A stretch of DNA of 64,000 nt from Anaerolineae bacterium (GTDB taxonomy: Bacteria > Chloroflexota > Anaerolineae > UBA1429): NCBI GenBank assembly GCA_040766725.1, contig JAXGPZ010000001.1:2414328-2478327 (forward strand), given 5' to 3'. This document shows, piece by piece, positions 20,789 through 63,013 of the stretch. The position numbers and the translations under genes are program-made. A model generated the notes under the pieces. That model searched no databases. It worked only from the letters and a program-made list of their open reading frames with translations, and was not told the DNA's origin. The stretch's first letter is position 1, and every line of letters begins with the position of its first letter.

Positions 20789-20873
20789 GAGAGGGATCAG
20801 GGTCAGGGCAGCAGCGTTGCCTGCTGCCCTGACCTGCGATGCATCTTGAGCGACCAAGCGAGAGGTGAACGCC

Positions 20874-21767: not shown

Positions 21768-21845
21768 CCAGGGCGCCCAGCAGCGGTTCGTGCGCGAGCA
21801 GATCGACCTACCGTGGCTGAGCCAGCCAGAGATGGAGTGCTGACG

Positions 21846-22778: not shown

Positions 22779-22849
22779 ACGCGCCAGCGACCACCGATCC
22801 GAACTGTGGCCCGCGGCCGTGCCGCGGCCAGAGATGCGAGGAGAGCCCT

Positions 22850-25177: not shown

Positions 25178-25187
25178 GGAGGGACAG

Positions 25188-26234: not shown

Positions 26235-26262
26235 CGAGCCACGCACAGCAGCAAGGAGCGAC

Positions 26263-27597: not shown

Positions 27598-27609
27598 AGC
27601 GAGGTGCGT

Positions 27610-28920: not shown

Positions 28921-28944
28921 CAACGGGGGAGGACGCCGGCGGTC

Positions 28945-35923: not shown

Positions 35924-36115
35924 GCGGCAGTGCTGGGCTCTGGCGTCTGGCAGCGCCGAGGCGGGCCGCTGAGGGCGGCTGCGGCTGACGCAGGGCCATG
36001 TGGATGAGGCGTCGGCAGCCAATAGACGGCCGGCGCAGGCGTCGCTGCTCTTGGCGTTGACGATGGCGGGGCAGAGACGGCGGCTACTATGGTCTGTGCA
36101 TATGGAGGGCACACT

Positions 36116-42200: not shown

Positions 42201-42311
42201 CAGCGCCGACATGCCCAGCGCCTGCGCCCGGTCGAGCAACGCCTCGGGGCGCGAGGCGCCATCGAGCAGCGAGTAGCAGGTGTGGCAGTGCAGCTCGACA
42301 TAGCCGCTCAT
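39249..42311 (-). CDS. dnaE2: Error-prone DNA polymerase III alpha-type subunit DnaE2 (ImuC)
   Basis: 1020 aa. PHP domain MSGYVELHCHTCYSLLDGASRP. Pol III alpha core (GYFITVWDIV, PDIDLDF). Cassette context with imuA and imuB. The ATG overlaps the upstream ORF stop (ATGA). Confidence 0.85.
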   Translation of the reverse strand: MSGYVELHCHTCYSLLDGASRPEALLDRAQALGMSALAITDNNALYGAVEFWSAAQERGLHAVIGAEVHLADDDQGEGGRLVLLVENREGYANLCRLISAAQLAGAKGNARLTLEQLTPHTGGLIVLTGGYRGRVNRLLLAGQSHEAAAWLRTLQRLAPPGNLYVELQHHLHRHDHLLLPDLAELAAALGLPVVATNGVHYAERWQHRLYDLLLAIDRNLTLDEARPHLLPNSEYYLKGPEEMAALLGAYPEALANTERIAARCRVDLNLRSDALPPTPHDGEAPAAQLERLCREALPRLYPHERGAAERQLAHELQVIAQTRLAGYFITVWDIVSYAREQGIQVRGRGSAANSIVAYLLGITNVDPLANDLLFERFLSAESRVMPDIDLDFNASRREEVLQYVYAKYGEDHVGMVCNYVTYRQRSAVRDVGKALGFPPDLIDHLAKAQGGLGSYHHGDVGHPLMAHVSGETWGQFLALYEQIQGLPRHLSIHVGGMVITRRPLVELVPLERATMPGRVVVQWNKDSLEEAGLIKFDLLSLGTFGVLDECLATIERRHGRRIDLDRLPLDDPRLYAILQRADTVGLFQVESRAQQQALVKMRPRTFNDIVIEVAIIRPGPLLGNMVHPFFRRRMGQEPVTYLHPLLEPILQETLGVIVFQEQVIRIAMAMGRFTPGEADLLRRAMSHQRSHERMAALQQQFVQGALSQGVSLEVAEQVFAQLSGFAAYGFCKSHAASFAKTTYDTLYLRAYYPAEYYCALLNNQPMGFYAPRVLVRDALRHQVKVRPVDVNRSDYDCTLEGDAIRLGLRYVDGLGEAQAERVLAARARGAFASLADFCRRTRLPRRLIEQLIMARGFEAWGVEPRRLVWELGRLRYQADELPLPLPPDGVELAAMDEAERLLQEYGATGVAADGHLLELYRASLDRQGVLSSPMLTAARQGATVRVAGMVITRQAPPTAKGFVFVTLEDEWGLINVIIRPDVFQGQRVVWRTSLVLLVQGQVQHANGYCNIQAEKGWVLR

Positions 42312-42562
42312 TCGTACACCCGCTCCAGCCGCCAGGCCAGGGTCAGCCGATCTTGATAGATGCTGCACAGCAGCCGCGTTTCGGTGACCACCTCGCAATA
42401 GTCGCGCCAGACCTCGTGCTCGGTCCACCAGGCAAGGTGCACCCGCCACTGCACGCTGACCCAGCGCACGCGGTGTTCTTGTCGCTGCCAGCGAAAGCTC
42501 TGCACGGCGCCGTCGGCATCCAGCTCCACCTCGATGGGCTGCCCCTCGGGCCAAAAGGGCAT
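42308..42562 (-). CDS. 84-aa Trp-rich hypothetical protein translationally coupled between imuB and dnaE2
   Basis: ATG at 42562 is preceded by a GGAGG RBS. It lies 2 nt after the imuB stop, and its stop overlaps the dnaE2 start. It has GC3-rich coding codon usage. The protein composition is not junk (MPFWPEGQPIEVELDADGAVQSFRWQRQEHRVRWVSVQWRVHLAWWTEHEVWRDYCEVV...). Confidence 0.5.
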   Translation of the reverse strand: MPFWPEGQPIEVELDADGAVQSFRWQRQEHRVRWVSVQWRVHLAWWTEHEVWRDYCEVVTETRLLCSIYQDRLTLAWRLERVYE

Positions 42563-42564
42563 GA

Positions 42565-43743
42565 TCAGCGCCTCCGCAGGCGGTAGCGCTCGGCCACCAG
42601 CTCGTCATCGGGCAGGTGAGGCTGCGCCTGCAACACGCTGTCGCCGGGGTGCTTGTGGGCGAGCCTGTCGAGGGCCTCGGCCAGGCGGTAGCGGTCTTCC
42701 ATCTGGGCAAAGAGCTGCAGTTGGCGGCCGTCGGTGGCCTCGAGGGCGGTGAGTTGCAGCTCGATGGCCAGCACGCCCTCGTCGTCGCGGTGAGCGCGCT
42801 GCAGCTCGCGCAACAGGCCGGCCAGCAGCCCTTGCAGCCGTTGCGGGCCCAGGCCCTCGCTGGCCCAGGCCGATTTGCTCCAGCTCTCGCCGCCGGCCAG
42901 CTCAAAGCGCACCTGCAGGCGGCGGGCCACCAGATGCGCCTCGTTCAGTTCGGCAAAGAGGCGCTGCCCCAGCCGCTGCAGCAGGGCCAGCAGCGCCTCG
43001 CCACGGGCCTCGGGCAGCTCAAAGGCGTGCCGCGCGGTGAGCAGTTGACGGCGGCGGCCCTGCAGCGGGCGGTCGTCGCGGCCCGCCGCACGACGGTGCG
43101 CCGTGAGGCATTCGGGGCCAAACTGCTCGGCCACGGCGGCGGCGGGCAGCCGCGCCAGGTCGCCCAGGGTGGCAATGCCGAGCATCCGCAGGCGCCGTTG
43201 CGCCTCGAGGGGCAGCTCCAGGCAATCGACCGCCAGGGGCGCCAGAAAGGCGGCGTCGTCCTCGGCCAGAGTATAGCCGCGCCAGGGTGCGCTGCGTTGG
43301 GCTGCCATCCAGGCGGTGAACTTGGCGCTGGCCACGCCCACCAGCGCCGACAGGCCGGGGTGCTCTTGTAGCGCGCCGCGCAGCGCCCGGCACCAGGCGC
43401 CCTCGTCGCCATACAGCGCGCCCATGCCCTGCGCCTCGATATAGGCCAGGCCCAGGCTGTCATCTTCGACGGCGGGGCTGTGCAGGGCCAGGGCGGTGAG
43501 GGCCTCGTCCCACGCCTGGCGATAGCGCGGCAGGTCGGCCTCGACCAGCAGCGCCTCGGGGGCGCGCGCCAGCGCCTGCGCCAGGGGATCGCCGGGCTGC
43601 ACGCCCTGCGCCGCGACCTGCTCTGAGGCGTCGAGCACGATGCCCTCTTGCCGCACGATCAACGGCTGGCGTGGACGTCGCAGCCGTTGCTGTTCGAGCT
43701 GCGCCGGCAGATGGGGCGCCCACACACAGGCCAAACGCGACAT
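42565..43743 (-). CDS. imuB: ImuB, the Y-family (DinB-like) polymerase homolog of the SOS mutasome
   Basis: MSRLACVWAPHLPAQL...LIVRQEGIVLDASEQAAAQGVQPGD is a Y-family palm/finger-like N-terminus without obvious catalytic acidic triad spacing. At 392 aa it is shorter than typical ImuB (~470-530 aa). Confidence 0.75.
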   Translation of the reverse strand: MSRLACVWAPHLPAQLEQQRLRRPRQPLIVRQEGIVLDASEQVAAQGVQPGDPLAQALARAPEALLVEADLPRYRQAWDEALTALALHSPAVEDDSLGLAYIEAQGMGALYGDEGAWCRALRGALQEHPGLSALVGVASAKFTAWMAAQRSAPWRGYTLAEDDAAFLAPLAVDCLELPLEAQRRLRMLGIATLGDLARLPAAAVAEQFGPECLTAHRRAAGRDDRPLQGRRRQLLTARHAFELPEARGEALLALLQRLGQRLFAELNEAHLVARRLQVRFELAGGESWSKSAWASEGLGPQRLQGLLAGLLRELQRAHRDDEGVLAIELQLTALEATDGRQLQLFAQMEDRYRLAEALDRLAHKHPGDSVLQAQPHLPDDELVAERYRLRRR

Positions 43744-43752
43744 ACGCTCACC

Positions 43753-44490
43753 TCAGGTCAAAGGGATTTCCAGCTCGACGGCCGGCCCGATCGGCGCGAG
43801 CTTGTTCTTGAGCACCCGCACCTCGGCCAGCAGGCCCGTCACCTGGCGGCGGCGCTGTCGCCAGCGACGCCCCTCGCAGGCCAGCCGCAGGCTGGCGAAA
43901 TAGGGCAGCCCCAGCCCCTCGGGATACCAGTCCAGGCAGATCGTCTCGGTGAGCACCAGCAGCGTCGACATGGTGCTGTGCACCAGCGGCGTCCAGGCGC
44001 GCAGGGCCTGGTCGAGCAGGGCCAACGAGGCGTCCTCAAAGAGCAGCGGCTGCAGCCGGTCAAAGACGATCAGCGCCGCACCGCCCTCGGCCAGCAGGTC
44101 GCCGGTCATCTCGAGGGCGTGGCGAAAGCCGTGCGGCCGCAGGATATAGAGCCGGCGCAGGTCGATGTCGCGGCGCGCCAGCAGGTCCAGGTCGAGGCTC
44201 TGGTCGACATCGACATAGACAACGGCCTCGCCGCCGCGCTGCGTCTGCCGGATGAGGCTGGCCAGCAGCAACGCCTGCCCGCTGCTGCCCGCCGTCACCA
44301 GCTCGGTGACGCGCCCGCGCGGCAGCCCGCCGATGCCCAACGCCTGGTCGAGGGGGGCCAGGCCGGTGGATAGCACCGGCGGACGGGTGGCGGTCAGTTG
44401 CCGCATCGGGCGAATGGCGCGCTGGCCCCATTTGCGCTGCAGCAGCGTGACGGTCTGTTCGAGCTCATGTAAGCGTGCCTGCTTGGCCAC
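43753..44490 (-). CDS. imuA: ImuA (RecA/SulA-fold mutasome protein)
   Basis: It has a degenerate RecA-like P-loop region (VTELVTAGSSGQALLLASLI) and is the first gene of the cassette. The proposed start is GTG 44490 with a GGAGGG RBS. The upstream in-frame ATG at 44508 and TTG at 44535 lie inside the -10 and LexA box of the promoter and are unlikely to be translated. Confidence 0.6.
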   Translation of the reverse strand: MAKQARLHELEQTVTLLQRKWGQRAIRPMRQLTATRPPVLSTGLAPLDQALGIGGLPRGRVTELVTAGSSGQALLLASLIRQTQRGGEAVVYVDVDQSLDLDLLARRDIDLRRLYILRPHGFRHALEMTGDLLAEGGAALIVFDRLQPLLFEDASLALLDQALRAWTPLVHSTMSTLLVLTETICLDWYPEGLGLPYFASLRLACEGRRWRQRRRQVTGLLAEVRVLKNKLAPIGPAVELEIPLT

Positions 44491-44506
44491 GGCGCCCTCC
44501 AAAGCC

Positions 44507-44535
44507 ATGATACCGAACAAACGTTCGAGTGTCAA
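44507..44535 (-). promoter_or_regulatory. SOS promoter: -35 TTGACA, 17-nt spacer containing the LexA (Cheo-type) box CGAACAAACGTTCG at 44514..44527, -10 TATCAT
   Basis: Read directly on the minus strand: TTGACA CTCGAACGTTTGTTCGG TATCAT. GAAC-N4-GTTC is a perfect dyad matching the Gram-positive/Chloroflexi LexA consensus CGAACRNRYGTTCG. Confidence 0.65.
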
Positions 44536-44735
44536 TGGCGGGACGTATCGGCAGGCGCGGTGTGCTTGTGGCCCTGTCGCGCATCGCGGGGGATGGGGCG
44601 GGGCGTAGCGGCGCGTGGGGGCTACGGATGAACCGGCGCACCTGCAGCACTGGCATGACAGCTGCGCCGTGGCGTTCTATACTTGGTCCTCAAGCGGCTA
44701 TCGGCGCTCGCGATTGGCCTAACAGAGACTTGACG

Positions 44736-45683
44736 ATGGGCAGACTCTACATTGGCGTCACCGACAACGACTGGTTCCATTTCCTAGCAGCCCGCCGGCC
44801 CGATGAGGTCAACTTTTGGCTCCCGGGCGACCAGCGTCGCTTCCGCACGCTCGAAACAGGCGAGCTCTTCCTGTTCAAACTACACAGCCCCGATGACTAT
44901 ATCGTCGGCGGCGGCCTGTTCGTCAGCCACACCCTGTTGCCCCTATCCATGGCATGGGAGGTTTTCGGCACCAGCAACGGAGTGCCGGATCTGGCCACGC
45001 TAAGCAGCAAGATCAGGCACTACCGTGCCTCTAGAGGAGCCATCGGCCGCGACCCGACGATCGGCTGCATCGTGTTGGCCGAGCCGTTCTTCCTCGAGCC
45101 TGCTGCATGGTTGCCGATGCCAGCTGGCTGGCACAGGAACATCGTCCAGGGCAAATCCTACGAGATCGACAGCCCTGAGGGGCGCCGTCTGCTCGACAGT
45201 GTGCTGCCGCTGATGGGGCATCGCATTGGCTCGCCGGCCGTCGGAGAGGTTGCCCCCCGAGTCATTGCAGAGGAGGGGCCACGATACGGGCCCGAGACCC
45301 CCATCAGACCGCGGCTCGGTCAGGGGGGCTTTCGCATCGTGGTCACTGAGGCCTATGAGCGGCGCTGTGCTGTCACCGGCGAGCGCGTACTGCCCGTGCT
45401 GCAGGCATCGCACATCAAGCCCTTCTCATTCGAAGGGCCCAACACGGTGGACAACGGCATCTTGTTGCGGTCAGACCTGCACGCGCTGTTCGATCGTGGC
45501 TACCTGACCATCACCGAGGACCACCATGTCGAGGTTAGCAGGCAGATCGAGCAGGAGTTTCACAACGGCAAGGCGTATCGGCGCCTGCACGGCGCAGAGT
45601 TGTCGGTGTTACCGCAGCGCGAGGTAGAGCGGCCATCTGCAGAGTTCATCGGCTGGCATAACGAGCATTGCTACCGCGGATAG
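44736..45683 (+). CDS. HNH endonuclease with an N-terminal PUA-like (EVE/ASCH-type) domain; candidate modification-dependent (type IV-like) restriction nuclease
   Basis: The C-terminus RCAVTGERVLPVLQASHIKPFSFEGPNTVDNGILLRSDLHALFDRGYL is an HNH (HNH_2-like) motif. The N-terminus YIGVTDNDWFHFLAARRPDEVNFWLPGD...GELFLFKLHSPDDYIVGGGLFVSH has a PUA-like beta-barrel pattern. Confidence 0.65.
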   Translation: MGRLYIGVTDNDWFHFLAARRPDEVNFWLPGDQRRFRTLETGELFLFKLHSPDDYIVGGGLFVSHTLLPLSMAWEVFGTSNGVPDLATLSSKIRHYRASRGAIGRDPTIGCIVLAEPFFLEPAAWLPMPAGWHRNIVQGKSYEIDSPEGRRLLDSVLPLMGHRIGSPAVGEVAPRVIAEEGPRYGPETPIRPRLGQGGFRIVVTEAYERRCAVTGERVLPVLQASHIKPFSFEGPNTVDNGILLRSDLHALFDRGYLTITEDHHVEVSRQIEQEFHNGKAYRRLHGAELSVLPQREVERPSAEFIGWHNEHCYRG

Positions 45684-46296: not shown

Positions 46297-46328
46297 CAAG
46301 CCAAACGGGCGCTCCACGGAGCGCCCGT
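46297..46328 (-). terminator. GC-rich hairpin (ACGGGCGCTCC / GGAGCGCCCGT) followed by TTGGCTTG, downstream of the corrinoid-protein gene
   Basis: Seen in the sequence 29 nt after the stop at 46357. The U-tract is weak. Confidence 0.4.
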
Positions 46329-46356
46329 CTGCAATCACTCGTCTCGGTTGCGGCCG

Positions 46357-46992
46357 TCAGCCCGCGATCAACTCGGCCACCAGCCGCGCCGCACCCGCCG
46401 CGTCGCGCGCATAGCCGTCGGCGCCGATCTCGTCGGCGTACTTTTGCGTCACCGGCGCACCGCCGATCATGATCTTGATCTTGCCGTGCAGCCCCGATTC
46501 CTTGAGCGCCTCGACCGTCGCCTTCATGCTCGGCATCGTCGTCGTCAGCAGCGCCGACAGCCCGATCACCTGCGCTCCGCGCTCGATCGCCGTCTGCACA
46601 TAGTTCTCCGGCGCCACGTCCACCCCCAGGTCGATCACTTCGTATCCCGCACCCTCCACCATGATCGCCACCAGGTTCTTGCCGATGTCGTGCAGGTCGC
46701 CCTTGACCGTGCCCACCACCACCTTGCCCTTGGGCTCCACGCCCCTCGCCACCAGCTCTGGCTTGAGTATGGCCAGCCCCGCCTTCATCGCTCGCGCCGC
46801 AATCAGCAGCTCGGGCACATAGTACTCGTTGATCTCGAACAGCCGCCCCACCTCGGCCATCGCCGGGATCATCGCCTCGTTCAGCACCCGGCCTGCCTCG
46901 ATGCCCGCCACCAACGCCGCACGCGTCCCGGTTTCGCAAGCCGCCATGTCGCCGTTCAAGATCGCTTCGTAGATCGCTTCTGGAAATGACAT
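46357..46992 (-). CDS. Cobalamin (B12)-binding corrinoid protein (MtaC/MtbC-like, DxHxxG)
   Basis: The B12-binding motif VKGDLHDIGKNLV (DxHxxG) and GGAPVTQ are present. The N-terminal helical cap resembles methyltransferase corrinoid proteins. Confidence 0.8.
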   Translation of the reverse strand: MSFPEAIYEAILNGDMAACETGTRAALVAGIEAGRVLNEAMIPAMAEVGRLFEINEYYVPELLIAARAMKAGLAILKPELVARGVEPKGKVVVGTVKGDLHDIGKNLVAIMVEGAGYEVIDLGVDVAPENYVQTAIERGAQVIGLSALLTTTMPSMKATVEALKESGLHGKIKIMIGGAPVTQKYADEIGADGYARDAAGAARLVAELIAG

Positions 46993-47004
46993 GCCTTTGC
47001 TCCT

Positions 47005-48003
47005 CTAGGGCTTGATCGCGGCGCGTCGCCAGGGGTCGGCCTGCAGGAATGCGTCTAGCATGACCTGCTTCTTTTCAGGCACTACACCGATGGCCTCGCC
47101 ATCGCCATAGTCGCTAAGGATAAAGCCGCCTTCGGGCGTCGCCCACCGCTCGAGCAGCAGTTGTGCCTCCTCGCGAATGTCGTCAGCGTCTTTGAAGGGC
47201 AGCGTGTGTTGAATATCACAGAGTGACTCGAAGCATATCCGACCGCGATACCTTGCGCCGATCTCCTCAATGCCCAAAGCGCGCGGCTGCTGCAAGTTGA
47301 TCACGTTGCAGCCGATCTCGATCAACGGCTCGATGACCTCGTTCACCTTGCCGCAGCTATGCATCCACACGTGCCAGCCCTTGGCGTGCATCGAGTCGAA
47401 AAGCACCTTGTATCGTGGCTTGAAAAACTCGTTCCACATCTTGGGGCTCACAAAGGTAGCGAGCTCGGTGCCCCAGTCATCAGTAAAGGAAAACCCGTGG
47501 ATCTGCCCGGGGAAGCGTGCATGGATATTCTCCATGATGCCCAGGTTGTACTCCATAACCTTGTCAGCCAGCCATTCCATGCTCTGCCGTTCGGCATACA
47601 GGTCTGTCAGTGTGTTCTGAAACCCATGCAACATGTGCATACGCTCGAACAGGAAAAACCCGATGCCGGTCATGATGTACTTGCCATCCGAGCCTTCGAA
47701 CCGCTCCTCCATGCCTTCATAGAACAGCGGGTTGTCGGGGTCAGGCCACCGATAGGAGTCCGCTTTGCTCAGATCTTCCAGCGGGTGCCCTTTGACCTGC
47801 CCCATATTGGACATCTCGGTCCGCTCCCACAGACACCCGAACCAATCATAGTCCTGACGTTTGGCACGGTCGCCCACGCCCTTGTTGTTCCAAGCCACAC
47901 CGAAAGTGTCATTGAGCCCCAGGAGCGCAAAGCGCACCGGTATGCGGTCAGGTGTTCGAAACTCGATCGCCCGCCGCACAACTTCGTATGATGACATGGC
48001 CAT
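47005..48003 (-). CDS. Uroporphyrinogen-decarboxylase-family (MtaA/MtbA/CmuA-like) methylcobamide methyltransferase
   Basis: N-terminus YEVVRRAIEFRTPDRIPV is URO-D-like. Putative Zn ligands are in WMHSCGKV (HxC) and a downstream Cys (FESLCD), as in MtaA. It lies 12 nt before the corrinoid protein gene. Confidence 0.75.
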   Translation of the reverse strand: MAMSSYEVVRRAIEFRTPDRIPVRFALLGLNDTFGVAWNNKGVGDRAKRQDYDWFGCLWERTEMSNMGQVKGHPLEDLSKADSYRWPDPDNPLFYEGMEERFEGSDGKYIMTGIGFFLFERMHMLHGFQNTLTDLYAERQSMEWLADKVMEYNLGIMENIHARFPGQIHGFSFTDDWGTELATFVSPKMWNEFFKPRYKVLFDSMHAKGWHVWMHSCGKVNEVIEPLIEIGCNVINLQQPRALGIEEIGARYRGRICFESLCDIQHTLPFKDADDIREEAQLLLERWATPEGGFILSDYGDGEAIGVVPEKKQVMLDAFLQADPWRRAAIKP

Positions 48004-48046
48004 GGCAGTCTCCTGATGCGTGGTAGATATGGCGCGAGGCAGACCG

Positions 48047-48895
48047 CTAGCCTTTGAGCCCGCTCATCGCCATGCCTTCGACGAATTGCCGCTGAAAGAT
48101 AAAGTAGACGATCAGGATAGGCACAGTGGCCACCGTGGTAAAGGCCATGACCGTACCCCAATCCACCGAAAACTCGCTATAGAAGCGCGTGACAGCAATC
48201 GGGATAGTGAACATCTCCGTTTCGTTGACCACAATGCTCGGCCACAGGAACGAGTTCCACGCACCCATGGCGGTGAACACAATCACCGTCGACACCGCCG
48301 ACTTGGACAGCGGCAATACCAGGCTGAACAGGATGCGCAGATCACTAGACCCATCTATGTAGGCCGCGTCGACCAGATCCGTCGGAACGGCCAGAAAGTG
48401 CTGTCGAAGCAGAAAGATAGCAAATGGCGTCATCAAGCCCGGCAATATCAGGCCGAGGTAGGTGTTTGTCAGGTGCAGGTTGCGCACCATGATATAGAGC
48501 GGGATAAGGATCACGTACGATGGGATCATCATGGTCAGTAGACACAAGGTGAAGACGGTATCGCGCCCTGGAAAAGTAAAGCGCGTCAGCCCATAGGCCA
48601 CGATGGCCGAGAGCAGAAGCGTAGTCAATACCTGGATCAAAGCAGTAAAGGCACTGTTGAAATAGACGCGTGGAATGTCCACCAGTCGCCAGGCTTCGCG
48701 ATAGTTGCGTAATGTGCCCAGTCCCGGCGTAATCCACCGCGGCGGGTAGGCCATCACCTCCGTATTGGGCTTGAACGAGGCCAGCGCCATCCACACCAGC
48801 GGCGCCAAGGCGATCACCGCGCCTGCCGTCAGCATGACGTAGATGATCCCTAGCAGAATCCACCTGCGAACACGAGGCCATCTGCTGGCCTGCAT
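48047..48895 (-). CDS. Sugar ABC transporter permease (MalG/UgpE-like)
   Basis: EAA motif DAAYIDGSSDLRILFSLVLP. ATG 48895 has a GGAGGAGGAG RBS. The track start 48913 is TTG. Confidence 0.85.
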   Translation of the reverse strand: MQASRWPRVRRWILLGIIYVMLTAGAVIALAPLVWMALASFKPNTEVMAYPPRWITPGLGTLRNYREAWRLVDIPRVYFNSAFTALIQVLTTLLLSAIVAYGLTRFTFPGRDTVFTLCLLTMMIPSYVILIPLYIMVRNLHLTNTYLGLILPGLMTPFAIFLLRQHFLAVPTDLVDAAYIDGSSDLRILFSLVLPLSKSAVSTVIVFTAMGAWNSFLWPSIVVNETEMFTIPIAVTRFYSEFSVDWGTVMAFTTVATVPILIVYFIFQRQFVEGMAMSGLKG

Positions 48896-48943
48896 AGGGC
48901 ACTCCTCCTCCAAAGCGACCGGCTGACGGGTCGAGGCTTGGAC

Positions 48944-49858
48944 CTAGTACGTTACCTCGCGCTCAACGACGCGCCGCTGGATGATCGTCACCAGTAGGAT
49001 CACGAGCGTCAACACAATGCCCATCGCCGTGCCATAGCCCAGCCGAAGATATTGGAACGACTCGCGATACAGCAGATAGACTGGCGTCCAGGTGCTGTTG
49101 AGCGGTCCGCCAGCAGTCATGAGGAATGGCTGCATGAACACCTGAAAGCCCCAGATGCCGTTTAGGATGATGCACAGCACAATGGTGGGGTTGAGCAGTG
49201 GAATGGTGATGCGCAGCAACTGCTGCATCGAGTTTGCTCCGTCAATCCGCGAGGCCTCATAGTACTCTCGGGGAATGTTCTGCAGGCCCGCCAGAAAGAT
49301 CACTGTGTAAAAGCCCACGCCCTTCCACACGTCCATCAGGGCGATGGATTCCATGGCTTGCTTGGGCGATGAGATAAACTGCTGTTTAGGAATGCCCAGC
49401 TTCCCGAGGTAGTAGTTGATCAGCCCCATCGAGGGCGAATACAGCGACGTGAACAGCACCGCGATGACGGTTAACGAGACGACGTTGGGCACAAAGTAGA
49501 CCGTCCGGAAAAAGCCCCGCAAGAACTGCAGATTATTGAGCGCCAGTGCGGCCAGTAGCGAAAGCACCAACGTTAGGGGTATCTGCACCACCATATATCT
49601 GCCCACGTTGGCATAGCTCTTGAGGTAGAGATCATCTTGCAGCATTGTCCTAAAGTGCTGCAAGCCGACAAAACGCGGCGTCTCATAGAGTGTCTCAAAC
49701 TCGCGGAAACTGAGCCAAAATGCATAGAGCAGCGGAAAGAGCCAGAATATCAGAAAGAAAAGCAGGTATGGTGAAAGAAACGCGTAACCCTTCAGCACCT
49801 GGCGATGCCGGTACAACAGCCGGTCGATCTTTTCGCCCAGGCTGGGTTTCTCTGGCAT
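48944..49858 (-). CDS. Sugar ABC transporter permease (MalF/UgpA-like)
   Basis: MPEKPSLGEKIDRLLYRHRQVLKGYAFL... EAA loop YEASRIDGANSMQQLLRITIP. Start chosen at ATG 49858. The RBS is distant, so the start is uncertain. Confidence 0.75.
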   Translation of the reverse strand: MPEKPSLGEKIDRLLYRHRQVLKGYAFLSPYLLFFLIFWLFPLLYAFWLSFREFETLYETPRFVGLQHFRTMLQDDLYLKSYANVGRYMVVQIPLTLVLSLLAALALNNLQFLRGFFRTVYFVPNVVSLTVIAVLFTSLYSPSMGLINYYLGKLGIPKQQFISSPKQAMESIALMDVWKGVGFYTVIFLAGLQNIPREYYEASRIDGANSMQQLLRITIPLLNPTIVLCIILNGIWGFQVFMQPFLMTAGGPLNSTWTPVYLLYRESFQYLRLGYGTAMGIVLTLVILLVTIIQRRVVEREVTY

Positions 49859-49957
49859 CACAGCGCGAGTAGCCAAGTCTCTCCTTTCTCCCCGTCTCCA
49901 TAGGGAGCACCCGGAGCGAACGCAGAGCATCCGCTCCGGGGTCATGCTGCACAAAAC

Positions 49958-51403
49958 CTATCTGGCGGCGCGCGCCTCTTGGACAGCCTGGAGCAGCTTG
50001 TCGAACTCGGCGCTGGCGGTCTCCATCGCTTCTTCGACGGGCTTGTTCTCAAAGAGAATGCTCTGGTACTCTTGCTGGATCACGGCTTCGATACGAGTGT
50101 ATTCCATGCCCACCCGAGGAATGCCGTTGACCGCCAGGGCTACCGCTTGTTTGTGCTGCGGAATGCCCTCTTCTAGATAGGGATGATCGCCCATGTCGTT
50201 GCGGGCTGGCGTGTAGTAGTTTCGACCAAAGTCGGCTTCCTGATCGGCCTGCGTGCAAAAGTTGATCCAGTCCCAGGCCTCGGCCTTGTGCTCGGCGATC
50301 TTGAAGATCACCTGGCCCATGCCATCGCCCACGCCCGTCACAGCGGGCTCCTTTTTCTTGGCGTTGGGCGGGAGCGGATAGCCCATTGGCGCCCAGCGGA
50401 ACTTGTCACCGATGGCATCCTGCATGCCCTTGTAGCCACGGTTCGACGGCGTGAAGGAGATCGGGACAAGCTGGTCGTTGAAGAAGCTGGTACCTGGCGC
50501 AGGCTTCTCGGGCGATACCCAACCCTTGTCAAAGATGTCCTTGAACAGCTTGACCGTGTTCACCACGGGCTCGGTGTTCAAGAGCGACTTGAACTCTGTG
50601 GTGTCGGCGATGGTGACGATCGAATCGGTATACATGCCCGGATACGAAGCCAGATAGAGCATGATGGCCCAGGCGGTGTGAACAAGCATATCCACCGGCC
50701 AGTTGCCACTTCCCTGCAGTTTCTCCAGCCAGACGAGGTACTCTTCCCAGGTCTTGGGCGGCTTGTCAGCATCCAGCCCGGCCTTGTCGACCATATCGAG
50801 GTTGTAGGTCGGGCAGTGAATGTCGATGCAGTTGGGCATGATGTAGACGTCTTCCATATCGAGCTTCAATCGCTCGATCATCTGAGGGAAGATCGCCTTT
50901 TCCAGGTCCGAGTAGCCGGGGTAGACGGTGTCGTCATTCAGCTTCTCGAGCACCTGCAGACGCACAAACTCGTACGTCCGCAACGTGTGGAGCCACATGG
51001 TGTCGGGGCGTTCGCCAGCCGCCAGCCGTGTGATCATGCGCTCCTCGGTCTCACCTGGGGCGGCTGCATACGACTTGGAGAGCACGTCCACGTCGGGGAA
51101 CTGCTCCATAAAGCGCGGCGCGATGGCGGCGAAAGTCGGCTCTAGCGCTGCTCCCTGAAAGCCATAGATGGCCAGTTCGACCTTTTCTTTGGGCGCAGGG
51201 GGAGCGGTCGCGATCTTCTCGACCACCTTCTCGACGACCTTGGGCGTGCCCTCGACGATGACGGTCTCCTTTACAACCTCCTTGACAACCTTCTCGACCT
51301 CGACGACCTTGGGCTGGCAAGCGGCCAGCAACGCAGCGCCGGCTCCGGCACAGCCGAGGCGCAACACAGCACGTCGTGTCAACATTCTTCCCTGAATCGC
51401 CAT
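49958..51403 (-). CDS. Sugar ABC transporter substrate-binding lipoprotein (family 1)
   Basis: MLTRRAVLRLG, lipobox LLAAC, VVEVEKVVKEVVKETVIVEGTPKVVEKVVEK linker. AAGGAGGG RBS before ATG 51403. Confidence 0.85.
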   Translation of the reverse strand: MAIQGRMLTRRAVLRLGCAGAGAALLAACQPKVVEVEKVVKEVVKETVIVEGTPKVVEKVVEKIATAPPAPKEKVELAIYGFQGAALEPTFAAIAPRFMEQFPDVDVLSKSYAAAPGETEERMITRLAAGERPDTMWLHTLRTYEFVRLQVLEKLNDDTVYPGYSDLEKAIFPQMIERLKLDMEDVYIMPNCIDIHCPTYNLDMVDKAGLDADKPPKTWEEYLVWLEKLQGSGNWPVDMLVHTAWAIMLYLASYPGMYTDSIVTIADTTEFKSLLNTEPVVNTVKLFKDIFDKGWVSPEKPAPGTSFFNDQLVPISFTPSNRGYKGMQDAIGDKFRWAPMGYPLPPNAKKKEPAVTGVGDGMGQVIFKIAEHKAEAWDWINFCTQADQEADFGRNYYTPARNDMGDHPYLEEGIPQHKQAVALAVNGIPRVGMEYTRIEAVIQQEYQSILFENKPVEEAMETASAEFDKLLQAVQEARAAR

Positions 51404-51536
51404 AGCCTCGTTCCCTCCTTTGCCTCTATACACTCCCTGTAGGGCGTCGGGCCAAGGCGGCTACTCGCGGACCGGGCGGATCATCCCTCTGATGAGGGCG
51501 CTCCGACAATCCCGTTCCGCAGCAGGCAAGAGCCTT

Positions 51537-51635: not shown

Positions 51636-52856
51636 ATGACGTCAAGCGATCAGCTGGCAGGTATGGTGCGCTGGGCCCTGCGTCGACTTTACGATCCTGT
51701 GGCGCTGCGCACCAGTCCGCTGGTAGCGCTTCTTGGGTTGGATGCTGACCGCAATCCCGCCAAGCGTCTGCAGCAGGTGCTCATCAGCGCCATCGAGGCG
51801 TGCGAGCCAGGGCCAGAAGTGCCTGAGCAGTCGCGGGCCTGGCGCCTGCATGAGGTACTGCGCTCTCGTTATGTGGAGCAGTCGGGTCAGCAACAGGTCG
51901 CCGACCAGCTCGGCATCGGGGTGCGCCATCTTCGCCGTGAGGAGGTCGAGGCGATCACGGCGTTGGCCCATCTACTCGAGCCCGCCATCGCCCCCACAAC
52001 TGGCCTGGCACACGCTGAGCCCGGCCGGCATGAGCCCACGCCGCCTTTCTCAGCCGACGAACCACAACGCTGTGCCACGCCGCTCAACGAGGTCTTGATC
52101 GGCGCAATAGAAACGGTGGCTCCCTTGGCCGACAGGCACCTGGTGCACCTGGCTCCACCTCCGGCCGACATGTTGCAGAGCATATGCTGCTGCATCGAGC
52201 CCATGGCCTTGCGCCAGGTCCTGATCAACCTGCTGTGCGTGGCGGTGCGACAAACGCCGGGTGGCGAGGTGCGTGTAGATGTTCACTCCGATGGCGTCGA
52301 GCTCGTTCTCATGCTCATCGGCGTTGGTCGCAGCCATCCTGTGCCACGCGATGCCGATGACTGCGAGAACATCGCGTTGACAGCCGCGCTTCTCAACAGG
52401 TATGAGGCTACGTTGACGCTCTCGCCGCCCGAGGCCGATTTCGTGGCCACCCTGATCACACTCGCCAGCCCAGCCATTACGGTCATGGTGGTTGAGGACA
52501 ACGCCGATACCCTGAGTCTGTTGCAGCGCTACGTGGCCAGCTCGCCCTACCGAGTGCTCGGTCTTGGGCAGGCCGAACGGGCCATTGAGATGGCATGCGA
52601 GAACCAGCCGGACGTCATCGTGCTGGATGTGATGATGCCTACGGTCGATGGCTGGGAGTTGCTGGGCCGCCTGCAGCAGCATCCACAGACCAGTCATATC
52701 CCGCTGATTGTCTGCACGATTTTGGCGCAAGAGGAACTAGCACGCACACTCGGCGCTCGCGACTTTGTGCACAAGCCGGTTACGCGTCAGGCGTTCCTGG
52801 CTGCGCTCGATCGGCAGGCGCCTGCGATTGGCGGCCCAGCGCATCGGTCACACTGA
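51636..52856 (+). CDS. Atypical regulator: N-terminal HTH-like domain, degenerate HATPase_c-like domain (no recognisable HisKA), C-terminal receiver domain
   Basis: QQVADQLGIGVRHLRR is HTH-like. LRQVLINLLCVAVRQTPGGEVRVDV is N-box-like. The REC domain is VMVVEDNADT...DVIVLDVMMPTVDGWELL...PLIVCT...FVHKP. Confidence 0.65.
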   Translation: MTSSDQLAGMVRWALRRLYDPVALRTSPLVALLGLDADRNPAKRLQQVLISAIEACEPGPEVPEQSRAWRLHEVLRSRYVEQSGQQQVADQLGIGVRHLRREEVEAITALAHLLEPAIAPTTGLAHAEPGRHEPTPPFSADEPQRCATPLNEVLIGAIETVAPLADRHLVHLAPPPADMLQSICCCIEPMALRQVLINLLCVAVRQTPGGEVRVDVHSDGVELVLMLIGVGRSHPVPRDADDCENIALTAALLNRYEATLTLSPPEADFVATLITLASPAITVMVVEDNADTLSLLQRYVASSPYRVLGLGQAERAIEMACENQPDVIVLDVMMPTVDGWELLGRLQQHPQTSHIPLIVCTILAQEELARTLGARDFVHKPVTRQAFLAALDRQAPAIGGPAHRSH

Positions 52857-55023
52857 GCACCTGTCCGAGCAGTGCGGCCAGGGTGACGCCTGACGGACGC
52901 ACCACTGTCACGCAGCGTCCATCGGCGAACGAAGCAGCTGCTACCTGTCCGGTGATGGCGATCACGGGAATGGACCGCAGGCGCGCATCGCCTTGCTTGA
53001 TGCGCAGTAGCTCATAGCCATCGAGACCAGGCATGACCAGATCCAGCAGCACCAGATCGGGAGCGGCGTGGCGCATCAATGTCAACGCTCGCTGAGCACG
53101 AGTGGCCCGCAAGATCTCATAATGGCGATCACCTCCTTGCAGCAGCCTGACGAGGAGCTGGATGGCTTCCCTATCGTCATCCACGATCAGCACGCGCCGC
53201 ACCGCATCGCCCAGTTGATCCAGAAGTGCCAGCAAACGCCGCCGTTCGATCGGTTTGACGACATAGTCGAGAACGCCCAGTCGTTCTGCGAGTTCTCGCT
53301 CACTAGGCGCCCAACAAAGTATGCCAGGGGTGCCTTGCGGCAGCGCAGCAAGAGGACTCTCGCTCTGTAGAGCGTGCTCGGCCAGTTCGCTGTTAAGCAC
53401 CATTGCGTTGGCTGGCGAAGCTTCGAGTGACTGCACCGCCTCTTTGATGCTGGCCGCGGGCACAATCTCGGCGTCATAGTACTCGCGGCGCAACATACGC
53501 TGCATCACCTCACCCGACTCGACAACCACGAAACGAGGTCTGGTCACTGGGAGGGGTGCCCGTGAAGGGCGCGTTCGCACCTCAACCTGCGTGTCTGGGC
53601 CAAACCAACGCGATATATCAGCCCCGTTCGGCAAGGTTGGGGACAAAGTTGGCAGCTCAAAGTAGACTGAGGTGCCTTGCCCCAGCTCGCTCTCGAGCCA
53701 CATACGACCGTGGTGCAGCTCGATAAAGCGTCTGCTGATACTTAGGCCCAGGCCTGAGCCCTCAGTTCGCCGCCGAATTGCACTGCCCGCCTGCTGAAAG
53801 GGCTCGAATACGCGCTCGAGATCCTCAGCGGCTATCCCGGGCCCTGTATCGATCACGCCGCACCTGACCTTGCCAGCAGCCTCTGAGGCGACAACCTGGA
53901 CACCACCCGCCATGGTGTGCCGCCCGGCATTGCTGAGCAGGTTGAGCAACACCTGGCGCAGGCGGGTGCGGTCGCCGTGGATCAGCGGGAGCCCAGGGGC
54001 GATCTCGATCGTCAGGCCCAAGCCCTTGGAATCGAACAGCGGTCGGACCGCTACCACGGCAGCCTCGACGATGTCTCTCAGTGAGACCCACTCTTTTGTA
54101 AGGGCCATGCGCCCTGCATCGGCGCGGCTCAGATCCAGAATGTCATCCACCAGGCCGGCAAGGTGCTGGCTATTGCGCTGAATGGCAGCGATGTCAGCCA
54201 ACAGCGACGGTGGCAGTCTGGCGCCATAGACGCCGGGAGATTCGGTGATCATCTCGCTGAACCCGATGATGATGTTCAGTGGGGTCCGCAGCTCGTGGCT
54301 GACACTGGCCAGAAACTCCTCTTTGGCCGCCCGCGCATCTTCAGCGATCCGAGTCATCAGCTCGAGGCGCTCTGACAGACGCTCGAGCTGTAGGTTGGCG
54401 CTGATCAGGTCCTCCTGGGTCTCCTTAAGAACTACGCGCTGGGAAAGCGCCTCATCGAGACTGGCCCGCATATCTTGGCATTCGTGCCACGCCCAGTCGA
54501 CAACGTCGAGCACACGGCGTCTATAGAGCCAGATGAAGGCGGGCACCGCCCAGCACAGGATGCTCGTCATCGCCGCCAAGAGCCGATCAGGCAGGTCCTT
54601 TGGACTGTTGGCCCACCACAACACCAAAGTGATGGCCGTAACGATGGCACTACCCCAGGTCGGGCCGGTCGCCAGCCCTACTAGCCCCGCCGCAAGCACC
54701 CCCAGCAGGGCCGCCCCACGATAGCCGAGTCCACGCGAGCAGTAGGCAGCGATGAGCAGCGAAACCCCGGCCAGCAGGAGCAGGCCTGCTTTCGGCCGCC
54801 TTTCCTGCAACAAGATCGCGGTGATAGCGGCGCCAATCGCCAGTGCCGACTGTGGCACCAGCGCCCAGGGAAGCCCCCATAGGTCCACCGCAACGACTCC
54901 GACGATGGCGCAAGCGCATATCAGCATCGCGCTCGCGATCAGTGCACTGCGTCCGGCCTCGGCGTCCAGGTCGGATCGAGGATAGATGACGGCAGTCTTC
55001 TTGCTGAACACGGCTCCCTCCAA
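52780..55023 (-). CDS. Hybrid sensor histidine kinase: multi-TM sensor, HisKA, HATPase_c, then two receiver-like domains
   Basis: SHELRTPLN is the H-box. The G-boxes are DTGPGI and GSGLGLSI. The C-terminal REC is VLIVDDD...LVLLDLVMPGLDGYELL...PVIAITG. The start is uncertain (TTG 55023 or GTG 55008). The 3' end overlaps the convergent gene by 77 nt. Confidence 0.8.
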   Translation of the reverse strand: MEGAVFSKKTAVIYPRSDLDAEAGRSALIASAMLICACAIVGVVAVDLWGLPWALVPQSALAIGAAITAILLQERRPKAGLLLLAGVSLLIAAYCSRGLGYRGAALLGVLAAGLVGLATGPTWGSAIVTAITLVLWWANSPKDLPDRLLAAMTSILCWAVPAFIWLYRRRVLDVVDWAWHECQDMRASLDEALSQRVVLKETQEDLISANLQLERLSERLELMTRIAEDARAAKEEFLASVSHELRTPLNIIIGFSEMITESPGVYGARLPPSLLADIAAIQRNSQHLAGLVDDILDLSRADAGRMALTKEWVSLRDIVEAAVVAVRPLFDSKGLGLTIEIAPGLPLIHGDRTRLRQVLLNLLSNAGRHTMAGGVQVVASEAAGKVRCGVIDTGPGIAAEDLERVFEPFQQAGSAIRRRTEGSGLGLSISRRFIELHHGRMWLESELGQGTSVYFELPTLSPTLPNGADISRWFGPDTQVEVRTRPSRAPLPVTRPRFVVVESGEVMQRMLRREYYDAEIVPAASIKEAVQSLEASPANAMVLNSELAEHALQSESPLAALPQGTPGILCWAPSERELAERLGVLDYVVKPIERRRLLALLDQLGDAVRRVLIVDDDREAIQLLVRLLQGGDRHYEILRATRAQRALTLMRHAAPDLVLLDLVMPGLDGYELLRIKQGDARLRSIPVIAITGQVAAASFADGRCVTVVRPSGVTLAALLGQVLSVTDALGRQSQAPADRAQPGTPDA

Positions 55024-55570: not shown

Positions 55571-56750
55571 CCATACACATTGGGTCAGGACATCCCATAC
55601 ACTATCCATGGCGCAAGGAGGTGTGGGGATGCCTTTCATGCGGACGGACACGATAGATGCACGCATTCGCTTTGTGTGTGCGGCCTTGCAGCGACAGGGG
55701 AGGCAGACGATGGCCTCGCTGTGCCAGGAGTATGGCATTGCGCGGTGAACGGGCTACCACTGGCTGCGACGCCACGAAGACGCCGGGAGCTCTAGCGCTC
55801 TGGCAGACCGGTCTCGGGCGCCGCACGAGCAACCCCACAAGACGCCTTGCGAGGTCGAGGCCAGGGTGGTCGCCTTGCGCGAGCGGTATGGTTGAGGCGG
55901 GGAGGAGTTGCAGGGGCTACTGAGGCAGCAAGCCCAACAGCCCGCCGTGGGGCGCTTCGAGGCTGCCGAGCCGAATGACCTATGGCAGATGGACTTCAAG
56001 GCGCCCCTGGCCCTGACCCAAGGCTGCTGCTACCCGCTCGCCGTCCTCGATGACCACAGGCGCTACCTGCTGGGCCTGTGAGCCTTGCCCAGCACGGGCG
56101 CCAGGGCGACCTATGCCGCTCTACAGGCGACTATGCTCGTTTGCGGTCTACCGGAGGCCATCCTGATGGATCACGGCACGCCTGGTGGCACAGCAACAGC
56201 GCCTGTGGCCTCACACGCTGCTCCACGCAGCTCATCGAACAAGGGATTGAGGTGCTCCACGGTCGCTTCCGCCATCCTCAGACCCCGGGCAAGGTGGAGA
56301 CGCTGCATCATGCCCCGGCCCGTGACCTGCGCCACCATCGACGACCCGAGACGTTGGCCTCGGCGCAATCCTACTTTGATGGCTTCCGCCAGGAGTACAA
56401 CTGCCTGCGGCCGCATCGGGCTTTGGCCCTGGGGGTGCCGGCTGACTATTACCGCACCAGCAGCAGGAGCTGTCAGCCCTCGCCAGCGCTCTGGACCTAC
56501 CCCGCTGACTACCAGGCTGTCAGGCTGAACAGTGAGGGCAGCATGGACTACCATGGCGTGCGCTGCTGTGTGGCCAAGACGCTCGCCAGGCAGACCGTGG
56601 GGGTGCCTGAGGCCGATGCCAAACTGCCCGTGCAATACCGTGGCAGATATATCCGCGAGATCGATCTCACTACGGGCAAGAGCCGTGCCTTCGACCGCCC
56701 GCACCACGACATCCCAATGGTGTCTGGAATGTCCTGACACACATTGTATG
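55571..56750 (+). mobile_element. Decayed IS481-family insertion sequence (~1.18 kb) with imperfect ~25-bp terminal inverted repeats and a transposase gene broken by at least 3 stops/frameshifts
   Basis: Left IR CCATACACATTGGGTCAGGACATCC versus the right IR complement CCATACAATGTGTGTCAGGACATTCC. The ORF from ATG 55629 (AAGGAGG RBS) has an HTH N-terminus, a DDE core (NDLWQMDFK...ILMDHG), and an IS481-type C-terminus (HPQTPGKVETLHH...YNCLRPHRALALGVPADYY). These are spread over three frames, with TGA stops after ...GIAR, ...RYG and ...LGL. Confidence 0.6.
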
Positions 56751-59344: not shown

Positions 59345-60241
59345 CTAGAGCAGCCCCAGCGCCATCAGCGCCTGTTCCATCCCGTGGCGCTCGTCGGAGC
59401 TGATCTCGCGCATGGGGGCGCGAACGCCGCCCCCTGTGAGCCCACGAAGCTCCAGAGCGGCCTTGAAGAAGGCAGGGTGCATGCCGTCATGCAGAATGTG
59501 TCGCACCTTGTTGATCCGCACCTGTGTCTCGCGCGCCTGCTGCAGCGCTCCCCTATGGAACGCGTCGTACAAGGCGCAAAAGAGCTCGGGGAACACATTC
59601 GCATTGCCCGACACACCCCCACGAGAGCCCACAGCAAGGCCTGGCAGCATGAGCCCGTCGGAGCCGGTGAAGACCATCAGCGCCCCGTCGTCTAGGGCGA
59701 TGTACTCCTGGATCCTGACCAGGTCAGAGCTGCTCACTTTGAGCCCGGCAAGGTTAGGCGCACCGGCCGACAGGTGCTGCACCAGCTCCACCGAGATGTC
59801 GTTCTTGGCGTTGCCAGGGAAGCTGTAGATGAACATGGGATAGCCAGGCACCGCTGCCAGCGCAGTCTCGTAATGAACCCGCAGGCTCTGCTGGTCGTAG
59901 GTGTAGAAGAACGGCACGATCGCGCTGCCGGCATCGGCTCCGCACTCTGCGGCGTGCCGAGTGAGGGCCACGGTGTCTGCAGTGGACATGCAACCGACGT
60001 GAGCCAGAGTGAGGCAGCGACCGTTGACCTGGCGCACCACCAACTCTGTCAGATGCCTGCGCTCATCGAGGCTCATCAATGCCCCTTCGCCGGTCGAGCC
60101 CCCAATCATGAGGCCGTGGATACCTTTCGCGATCAGGAACTCGACCAGGGCAGCCACTGCCTGCTCGTCGACCCGGTCACTATCATCAAAGGGCGTGACG
60201 ATGGGGCAGATGACTCCGCCAAACCCCTCAGGAACTGCCAT
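59345..60241 (-). CDS. DapA-family class I aldolase/lyase (dihydrodipicolinate synthase / N-acetylneuraminate lyase / KDG-aldolase family)
   Basis: ICPIVTPFDDSDRVDEQAV...GLMIGGSTGEGALMS is the DapA/NanA-family N-terminus with GSTGE. A Schiff-base Lys region is present. Confidence 0.8.
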   Translation of the reverse strand: MAVPEGFGGVICPIVTPFDDSDRVDEQAVAALVEFLIAKGIHGLMIGGSTGEGALMSLDERRHLTELVVRQVNGRCLTLAHVGCMSTADTVALTRHAAECGADAGSAIVPFFYTYDQQSLRVHYETALAAVPGYPMFIYSFPGNAKNDISVELVQHLSAGAPNLAGLKVSSSDLVRIQEYIALDDGALMVFTGSDGLMLPGLAVGSRGGVSGNANVFPELFCALYDAFHRGALQQARETQVRINKVRHILHDGMHPAFFKAALELRGLTGGGVRAPMREISSDERHGMEQALMALGLL

Positions 60242-60254
60242 GACTCGCTCCCCT

Positions 60255-61040: not shown

Positions 61041-61169
61041 CGTTGCCCGTCATCCTACCTGTACACGGCCCAACCACACCCTGGAATCGCGACAGCCCAT
61101 TATACACCAAAGCGCCAGCACTCTGCCCAGACCACACCATGGCCCGTGCGTACCTCTGCGACCATGGGC

Positions 61170-62999: not shown

Positions 63000-63013
63000 T
63001 GCTGCCGGGCTAC

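Follow-up and report, generated by a model that had tools for sequence, protein, structure and literature searches.

A minus-strand operon in the genome of an Anaerolineae bacterium (Chloroflexota, UBA1429) encodes a CUT1-type ATP-binding cassette (ABC) importer, a UroD-superfamily enzyme and a corrinoid carrier protein, and may serve the regulated uptake of a probably carbohydrate-like solute together with corrinoid-mediated methyl transfer on the imported solute, a reading to which we assign a probability of roughly 0.45. The operon lies in a window of 64,000 nucleotides (GenBank assembly GCA_040766725.1, contig JAXGPZ010000001.1, positions 2,414,328 to 2,478,327), the whole stretch analysed here, to which all coordinates without a locus name refer. 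Five co-directional open reading frames (ORFs), whose coordinates were checked, make up this operon (henceforth operon A): the genes for a CUT1-type solute-binding lipoprotein (SBP; 49958–51433, Pfam SBP_bac_8/SBP_bac_1), a UgpA/MalF-like permease 1 (48944–49954), a UgpE/MalG-like permease 2 (48047–48913; both permeases BPD_transp_1), the UroD-superfamily TIM-barrel protein (47005–48003; a weak URO-D match) and, at the 3' end, the corrinoid (B12) carrier with its cap and Rossmann domains (46357–46992; PF02607, B12-binding_2, and PF02310, B12-binding). From the SBP to the corrinoid gene the gaps between the longest ORFs are 3, 30, 43 and 12 nt, in agreement with the spacing of 3–45 nt given by a first-pass annotation made from the sequence alone, whose assignment of the five products to families was also borne out by Pfam.

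The most likely true start of the SBP is the ATG at 51403, behind an AGGAGG, and permease 1 probably begins some 80–100 nt inside its annotated ORF, because its orthologues are 310 aa long. Twenty-five nt past the stop codon of the corrinoid gene, on the same strand, there is a GC-rich hairpin (46302–46331) that is likely the operon terminator. The hairpin predicted there by the first-pass annotation is indeed stable (13-bp stem, dG of −34 kcal/mol for a 67-nt stretch, z = −2.85), but its 3' tail is just UUUGG, and because of this short tail a terminator scan based on T-runs overlooked it. An internal scan of the operon was uninformative: four promoter-like sites against 2.1 expected and seven terminator-like sites against 4.6 expected, none of them at gene junctions. 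Divergently from the operon runs the gene of a response-regulator-like protein (51636–52856, plus strand), with an N-terminal part of about 280 aa without assignment and a C-terminal receiver (Pfam Response_reg, residues 283–391), and beyond it lies a hybrid histidine kinase (52780–55023, minus strand) with a membrane N-terminus, HisKA, HATPase_c and receiver domains.

Both regulators belong to the conserved unit, which consists of histidine kinase, response regulator, SBP, two permeases, UroD-like gene and corrinoid gene. The whole block, divergent regulators included, is collinear at 77–78% DNA identity in two other loci (L004, from an Anaerolineales metagenome-assembled genome (MAG), and L093/L094) and at 97% in a third (L009), so that the five-gene arrangement does recur in related Chloroflexi. 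In L004 and L093 the histidine kinase is 65–66% and the response-regulator-like protein 57–61% identical to that of the window. The 12-nt spacing between the UroD-like and corrinoid genes is kept in the orthologues, and the flanks outside the conserved block vary from locus to locus.

The UroD-like protein matches PF01208 (URO-D) over residues 126–318 only (37 bits, cut-off 23.9), and its (beta/alpha)8 barrel, which can be superposed on UroD and MtaA, places it in the superfamily. Its best structural match is MtaA. H215-S-C217 and C262 are invariant in 31 homologues, as are C57, H73, H123, H169, D175, D176, D263 and Q265, and C262, two strands after the HxC motif, would complete a putative zinc site with H215 and C217. 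The only stretch that can be aligned by sequence to a solved structure of the UroD/MtaA superfamily, at E 0.31, is 'vwmHsCGkvn', which falls on 'vlHiCGNVN', the zinc motif of MtaA; a search of the PDB with the family profile gave matches at E 0.05–0.3 only. The residues of the HxC...C zinc-ligand spacing proposed by the first-pass annotation are present, and the HxC, the part compared by alignment, may correspond to that of MtaA, but the distance differs: C262 lies 44 residues past C217, as against about 75 for the distal cysteine of MtaA. The only NCBIfam models that the protein matches are of MtaA/CmuA type. An identity as HemE was considered and rejected, since TIGR01464 gave no match at E<=0.01, PF01208 is matched only in part and the HxC...C residues are invariant; no haem-biosynthesis family occurs among the window genes scanned.

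The family to which this enzyme belongs is large, strongly conserved and uncharacterised. A word-index search returned more than 2,000 matches (the top 120 at 66–100% identity), and 623 clusters at 50% identity were found at E<=1e-30 among 1.84 billion representatives. A homologue from a Planctomycetota MAG is still 57% identical.

The corrinoid protein (211 aa) is clearly recognised by PF02607 (73.8 bits) and PF02310 (102.6 bits), and it has the motifs of a carrier: D99-L-H-D-I-G104, the DxHxxG motif already noticed in the first-pass annotation, S146-x-L and G177-G. It has a cap domain and no DNA-binding domain, and these features mark it as a protein of the methyl-carrier type. Curated cut-offs are missed (TIGR02370, 189.3 against 215.3 bits; MtgC NF047996, 200.1 against 370), so that it stands near the general TIGR02370 family without being the equivalog of any named carrier.

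Relatives of this carrier at 70–85% identity occupy a core position in Anaerolineae, in the order bPH_5/DUF1648, DUF92, corrinoid protein, RuvB, QueH, QueA, which we found in five lineages (L089 6979–7614, L095 6001–6636, L099 6001–6639, L102 6001–6639 and L108 8001–8636). At these five core loci no methyltransferase gene stands beside the corrinoid gene. All the extra, non-core copies that we found, in five contexts, adjoin genes of the UroD superfamily, and three of them close different CUT1 ABC operons. The contexts are operon A (window, L004, L009 and L093/94), operon B (L091/92), operon C (L105–107) and the loci L109 and L060. Operon B (L091 995–8636) comprises two permeases, an SBP, three URO-D paralogues and the carrier, followed by phosphodiesterase and sulfatase genes; operon C (L105 269–8636) has the same layout with different paralogues and is followed by a phage-type integrase. 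The URO-D paralogues of these two operons form two subfamilies of about 357 and 390 aa. In L109 the order is URO-D, a 62%-identical member of the UroD-like family, an unknown gene and the carrier, and in L060 a URO-D paralogue, a 69%-identical member of the family and the carrier. HxC is present in all URO-D paralogues next to carriers, and their NCBIfam matches are again of MtaA/CmuA type and far under cut-off, the exception being one weak HemE match of a paralogue in L078. Compared among operons A, B and C, the permeases are about 40% and the SBPs about 25% identical. The strongest argument for corrinoid-mediated methyl transfer in operon A is that three different CUT1 operons have, repeatedly and independently, come to end in this carrier gene, each time behind genes of the UroD superfamily. 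For the UroD-like protein itself, methyl transfer to or from a corrinoid protein is suggested by gene adjacency in operon A, L060 and L109.

The copies themselves point to a corrinoid gene that would be a recently duplicated or converted copy of the core-genome gene and not a dedicated, ancient partner, because the carriers of operons A and B in sister samples (probably one population) are 91% identical, as against 81–86% for operon-A orthologues across organisms, because one identical protein (P0157) is found both at the core site and in L109, and because the first 246 nt of the gene in L060 (1360–1605) are 100% identical in DNA to the window (46747–46992), an identity that begins at the very ATG. 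In L060 the neighbouring UroD-like gene and the spacer are only about 70–76% identical to the window; the identical stretch is due either to a chimera in the metagenome assembly or to a recent event in which the corrinoid cassette was converted or transferred. The GC content at third codon positions (GC3) of the corrinoid gene, 0.88 against 0.75–0.79 in its four operon partners, is suggestive only as a mark of insertion, being clearly raised in the window and L004 and weakly or not at all in L093 and L091. We read the ensemble as one generic carrier gene that may time and again have been copied, by duplication or conversion, into operons whose last genes belong to the UroD superfamily.

For the UroD-like family, 88 loci were gathered via the enzyme alone and reduced to 74 non-redundant ones, of which 36 are flanked on each side by 2 kb or more. 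Seven of the 74 have CUT1 permeases, directly upstream on the same strand in five. The same ABC-UroD operon is found in L010 and L011 (83% identical), and three more distant loci (L041, L057 and L059, 66–68% identical) show a histidine kinase and a response regulator and then permease, permease, SBP and UroD-like gene, without the carrier. The kinases that front these ABC and UroD-like operons in L041 and L059 are 34–36% identical to that of the window, and the response regulators, in the equivalent position in all three, 31%. Among the neighbours with carbohydrate character are GH13, sulfatases, glucokinase, ROK, GH2, GH95, GH42 and GH127. Within 5 kb, a second URO-D paralogue (nine loci), a sulfatase (eight), a xanthine-dehydrogenase-like flavoprotein, an amidohydrolase and an SDR protein recur, and L069 has permease, permease, UroD-like gene, GH13, URO-D and sulfatase, all co-directional. 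A single Logan contig (L110 8373–12344, P0352) carries a GH38 alpha-mannosidase with a C-terminal UroD-like domain in which all invariant residues are kept, preceded by a second GH38 gene; this fusion is a singleton that may be a merged gene call, and we count it as weak evidence. The link of the family to importers and carbohydrate genes is therefore recurrent, and its link to a corrinoid gene rare. An aldehyde:ferredoxin oxidoreductase (AFOR) gene, beside an aldose epimerase gene, was also seen 1.1 kb from an 80%-identical UroD-like gene (L001 12120–14108), and the window has an AFOR gene of its own (36089–38017); the two are consistent with a strictly anaerobic host.

The importer of operon A, an SBP_bac_1/8 binding protein with two MalF/MalG-type permeases, is of the CUT1 type. 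Read from the ATG at 51403, the SBP has a lipoprotein signal (...LLAAC, the lipobox) and a K/V/E-rich linker, and its closest solved structures are sugar binders, namely the trehalose/maltose-binding protein 1eu8 (E 4e-14) and also 4zs9 and 4zza. The permeases match UgpA (153 bits) and GlcT, and UgpE (136 bits) and GlcU, respectively, best among NCBIfam models, all under cut-offs. No cognate ATPase is encoded in the operon, the sole ABC ATPase of the window being of the oligopeptide type (11580–12551); an unlinked ATPase is common to many CUT1 systems. Because the solved relatives of the SBP bind sugars, because carbohydrate genes are found in the family neighbourhoods and because of the one GH38 fusion, the solute would most likely be of carbohydrate type. 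It is quite improbable that the imported methyl donor is instead a non-sugar, such as a methoxylated aromatic glycoside, a methylthio compound or a glycerophosphodiester. Aryl methyl ethers, methylthiols and methyl halides are indeed the substrates of known methyltransferases I (MT-I) of the UroD family (PMC10418091), the best NCBIfam matches of the permeases are UgpA and UgpE, and phosphodiesterase and sulfatase genes lie downstream of operon B; yet the best solved relatives of the SBP bind di- and oligosaccharides, its matches to UgpB are far weaker (E 6e-5 against 4e-14), and glycoside hydrolases and sugar kinases are the neighbours of the family. A betaine or methylamine system was considered as well and rejected, no MttB-type gene being present in the window or in any of the related loci; homologues placed among betaine or methylamine genes, which the first-pass annotation had named as evidence against its proposal, were thus not encountered.

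For demethylation of the solute, the preferred reading, we propose that the block works as a substrate-inducible uptake-and-demethylation unit, in which the two-component system (52780–55023 and 51636–52856) would control one transcript encoding the CUT1-type importer (SBP and two permeases, with an ATPase from elsewhere), a zinc-type MtaA-like methyltransferase and the corrinoid carrier. The metal site of the barrel would bind the solute brought in, most likely a carbohydrate or glycoside bearing a methyl group, and this group would be handed on to the corrinoid protein in its Co(I) state. Unloading of the resulting methyl-Co(III), with a thiol or tetrahydrofolate as acceptor, would fall to the same enzyme or else to a methyltransferase whose gene lies outside the window, and reductive reactivation would depend on a gene that is likewise outside it.

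Among known systems, the nearest in composition is MtsA/MtsB of Methanosarcina (methylthiol:coenzyme M methyltransferase), which pairs one UroD-superfamily zinc enzyme with one corrinoid protein of MtaC type and has no gene for a separate MT-I or methyltransferase II (MT-II) adjoining; operon A has the same two-protein composition, with a putative zinc site in its enzyme. In this two-protein system the one enzyme, MtsA, also unloads the carrier. Operon A differs in having no detectable sequence relationship to it past the superfamily, in being bacterial (Chloroflexi) and in being embedded in a CUT1 importer operon with a two-component regulator; coenzyme M is an unlikely acceptor. With MtaA (methylcobamide:coenzyme M methyltransferase, 4ay7/4ay8) and MtaC, the likeness of the UroD-like protein is one of fold, at 13–15% identity in structural alignments, and MtaB is absent. 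The O-demethylases of acetogens and Desulfitobacterium, made up of an MT-I of the UroD family, a corrinoid protein, a pterin-binding MT-II and an activating enzyme, also combine a UroD-superfamily enzyme with a corrinoid protein and remove O-methyl groups anaerobically, and their MT-I enzymes have been reported to contain zinc. Their substrates are aryl methyl ethers, and their operons have an MT-II, often an activase and no ABC importer, whereas operon A has one methyltransferase-like gene and a carrier only and so does not constitute a three-component O-demethylase. Widespread bacterial clusters of MtaA-like and corrinoid proteins with unknown substrate have been described as type 1 mlp clusters (Kountz & Balskus, PMC10418091), for whose Mlp proteins the definition asks more than 25% identity with a coenzyme M methyltransferase that has been characterised, and in whose description the main text mentions neither sugar nor ABC transporters; the UroD-like protein falls short of this value against 4ay7/4ay8. 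Its membership in the MtaA/CmuA, MtgC or mlp groups was therefore rejected, every curated threshold being missed.

Several observations weigh against corrinoid-mediated demethylation of the solute. The scores of the UroD-like protein against MtaA/CmuA models are far from the cut-offs (TIGR01463, NF040654 MtaA and NF004889, with 20.1 against 235.4, 22.9 against 400 and 26.2 against 244 bits), and the identity to MtaA is low even in structural alignment. Among the 45 window proteins scanned, short ORFs excluded, there is no pterin-binding MT-II, no RACE-type activase and no second URO-D protein, and the window has no Rfam match of any kind and hence no cobalamin riboswitch, as the first-pass annotation had said of MT-II, activase and riboswitch; control by a B12 riboswitch was accordingly rejected. 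Apart from methanol, no biochemical precedent is known for Co(I) cleaving an alkyl methyl ether. The corrinoid gene is present in only three of the 74 non-redundant loci (L004, L009 and L060), and only operon A pairs the UroD-like family alone with a carrier, since L060 and L109 also have a second URO-D paralogue there. The 102 immediate neighbours fall into 111 Pfam families, none of which dominates (glucokinase and PALP, at five times each). From this scarce linkage and the lack of a dominant neighbour family it follows that the enzyme may need no corrinoid partner, or may use one encoded elsewhere. Lastly, the UroD-like protein is 57–70% identical across phyla (66–68% in L041, L057 and L059), as against about 22–34% for the transporters, a difference that would fit a constant co-substrate better than a variable sugar.

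If no corrinoid partner is needed, the family could be a corrinoid-independent, metal-dependent carbohydrate enzyme (e.g. a decarboxylase, isomerase or direct transferase), and the corrinoid gene a duplicated passenger or the servant of another enzyme. Such an explanation accounts for the 71 of 74 loci without a corrinoid gene, for the 83%-identical L011 operon, past which the locus runs on for 3.2 kb with a malectin-domain gene and without the corrinoid gene, for the GH38 fusion and the GH13, sulfatase and glucokinase neighbours with no carrier at all, and for a corrinoid gene whose deviating GC3 makes it look recently inserted. We nevertheless hold it to be unlikely: that every extra corrinoid copy, in all five contexts, should adjoin UroD-superfamily genes is not expected of a passenger, the MtaA-like HxC is invariant and shared with all paralogues next to carriers, and in the orthologues, too, 12 nt separate the corrinoid gene from the UroD-like gene. 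What these loci do change is the standing of the proposal made by the first-pass annotation, corrinoid-dependent demethylation of methylated sugars: a UroD-superfamily enzyme with HxC and a carrier at the 3' end of a CUT1 operon are there as described, but, because the family is usually alone and the L011 operon has no corrinoid gene, we infer, and do not observe, that the enzyme depends on the carrier, just as we do for the direction of transfer and the class of substrate.

The direction of transfer bears on a second explanation, equally doubtful in our judgement, by which the UroD-like protein would be an unloading MT-II of the MtaA kind, moving the methyl group from the methyl-corrinoid to a thiol, possibly homocysteine as in the 'core' methionine synthases, in a housekeeping role with the MT-I elsewhere. 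A zinc-type HxC...C is typical of the thiol-alkylating members of the clan, MtaA and MetE, and it is on MtaA that the HxC could be aligned; genes of mtaA type are often unlinked to carriers. Zinc TIM-barrel synthases that use methyl-corrinoid proteins are documented: the core (folate-independent) methionine synthases MesA-D/core-MetE, small enzymes of the same clan as the UroD-like protein, take the methyl group from corrinoid proteins encoded elsewhere (PMC7857596, PMC7005905). The conservation across phyla in a 'floating' genomic context, the core-genome corrinoid copy without an adjoining methyltransferase, and the second URO-D paralogue near the gene in L060, L109 and nine other loci, which could be the MT-I, all agree with such a role. 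On the other side, operon A has no other methyltransferase and yet has a dedicated importer and regulators, operons B and C hold three other URO-D paralogues and no member of the UroD-like family, and carbohydrate genes are unexpected neighbours for a methionine synthase. By sequence, the UroD-like protein may be either an MT-I or an MT-II.

The nature of the methylated solute had been sought by the first-pass annotation in a locus of the same window (19199–30168), where the CE15-like domains and two GH4 genes that it reported were confirmed. The locus contains a double-CE15 protein (22664–25177, 837 aa) with two glucuronoyl-esterase (GCE)-like halves, two GH4 genes, a ROK gene, a second CUT1 ABC system and a gene of the glucosamine-6-P-isomerase family. 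That operon A should import 4-O-methylglucuronate or methylated xylan fragments from this locus and remove the 4-O-methyl ether is very improbable. In its favour are the presence of the two CE15 halves and the two GH4 genes (22664–28920) in the same window and the fact that, among the SBPs compared, the one of this locus is nearest to the operon SBP, at 25–32% identity. But the locus is complete in itself, having a CUT1 ABC system and a ROK regulator of its own; 20 kb with unrelated genes (among them a MacB-type exporter, AFOR and a dnaE2-imuB cassette) separate it from operon A; and the 5–8 kb on either side of the orthologous operons in L004 and L093 do not contain it. Moreover, no xylan or glucuronate gene occurs among the 102 neighbours of the family, in which sulfatase, GH13, glucokinase and GH38 recur. 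Apart from their lying in the same window, nothing connects operon A with this locus, and 4-O-methylglucuronoxylan as the source of the substrate is not supported.

Other features of the window were noted in passing. A mutagenesis cassette (39249–45683) comprises dnaE2 (1218 aa), an imuB-like gene (IMS) and a RecA-like imuA'; after it, and immediately downstream of the operon, comes a gene for an HNH_2 endonuclease. GC3 drops from 0.83–0.90 (1–44.5 kb) to 0.70–0.79 (44.5–64 kb), and a fragment of an integrase core (rve_3) is found at 56078–56737; the shift near 44500 and this fragment may mark an island boundary or an assembly join. At the far end (59345–63985), a DHDPS-family lyase, an IclR regulator, a BT_1020-like beta-propeller protein with a sialidase-like CBM and a BNR-repeat protein may form a locus for the utilisation of sialic-acid-like or other nonulosonates.

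In the full-text literature searched, to which many subscription papers do not belong and in which an absence is no proof, we found neither a corrinoid-dependent methyl-sugar demethylase nor UroD and corrinoid genes in sugar ABC operons, in line with the statement of the first-pass annotation that no such system paired with a carbohydrate importer has been characterised. We regard the locus as probably a module for corrinoid-dependent methyl transfer whose genomic setting is new and whose substrate setting is probably new as well. The only characterised enzyme that we found to remove a sugar methyl ether in the context of polysaccharide utilisation is the P450 6-O-methyl-D-galactose demethylase of marine Bacteroidetes, which depends on O2 and haem chemistry and releases formaldehyde (PMC6292453, PMC10033563). 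It would be a functional analogue if the sugar-demethylation reading is true, and is unrelated in sequence and fold.

Methyl ethers, such as those of 4-O-methylglucuronate, 6-O-methylgalactose and 2-O-methyl-fucose or -xylose, stand in the way of glycoside hydrolases and of the catabolism of sugars. Given that the only characterised sugar demethylase found needs oxygen (PMC6292453), operon A offers a testable candidate for the way in which strict anaerobes living on plant, algal and microbial glycans deal with methylated sugars, with a small soluble enzyme, a 211-aa carrier and a binding protein that can be screened for ligands. A broader and more tentative possibility is that in Anaerolineae and other anaerobes a radiation of UroD-superfamily zinc-type methyltransferases, sharing one repeatedly duplicated corrinoid protein, strips O-methyl (or S-methyl) groups from carbohydrates imported by dedicated CUT1 ABC importers. 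If true, the P450 methyl-sugar demethylases would have an anoxic equivalent that depends on cobalamin, and an alkyl (sugar) methyl ether would for the first time be seen to be cleaved with the help of a corrinoid. A function for the UroD-like family would annotate thousands of genes now called 'uroporphyrinogen decarboxylase family', and even if its members turned out to be thiol methyltransferases or corrinoid-independent enzymes, they would still represent a widespread unknown family tied to carbohydrate loci.

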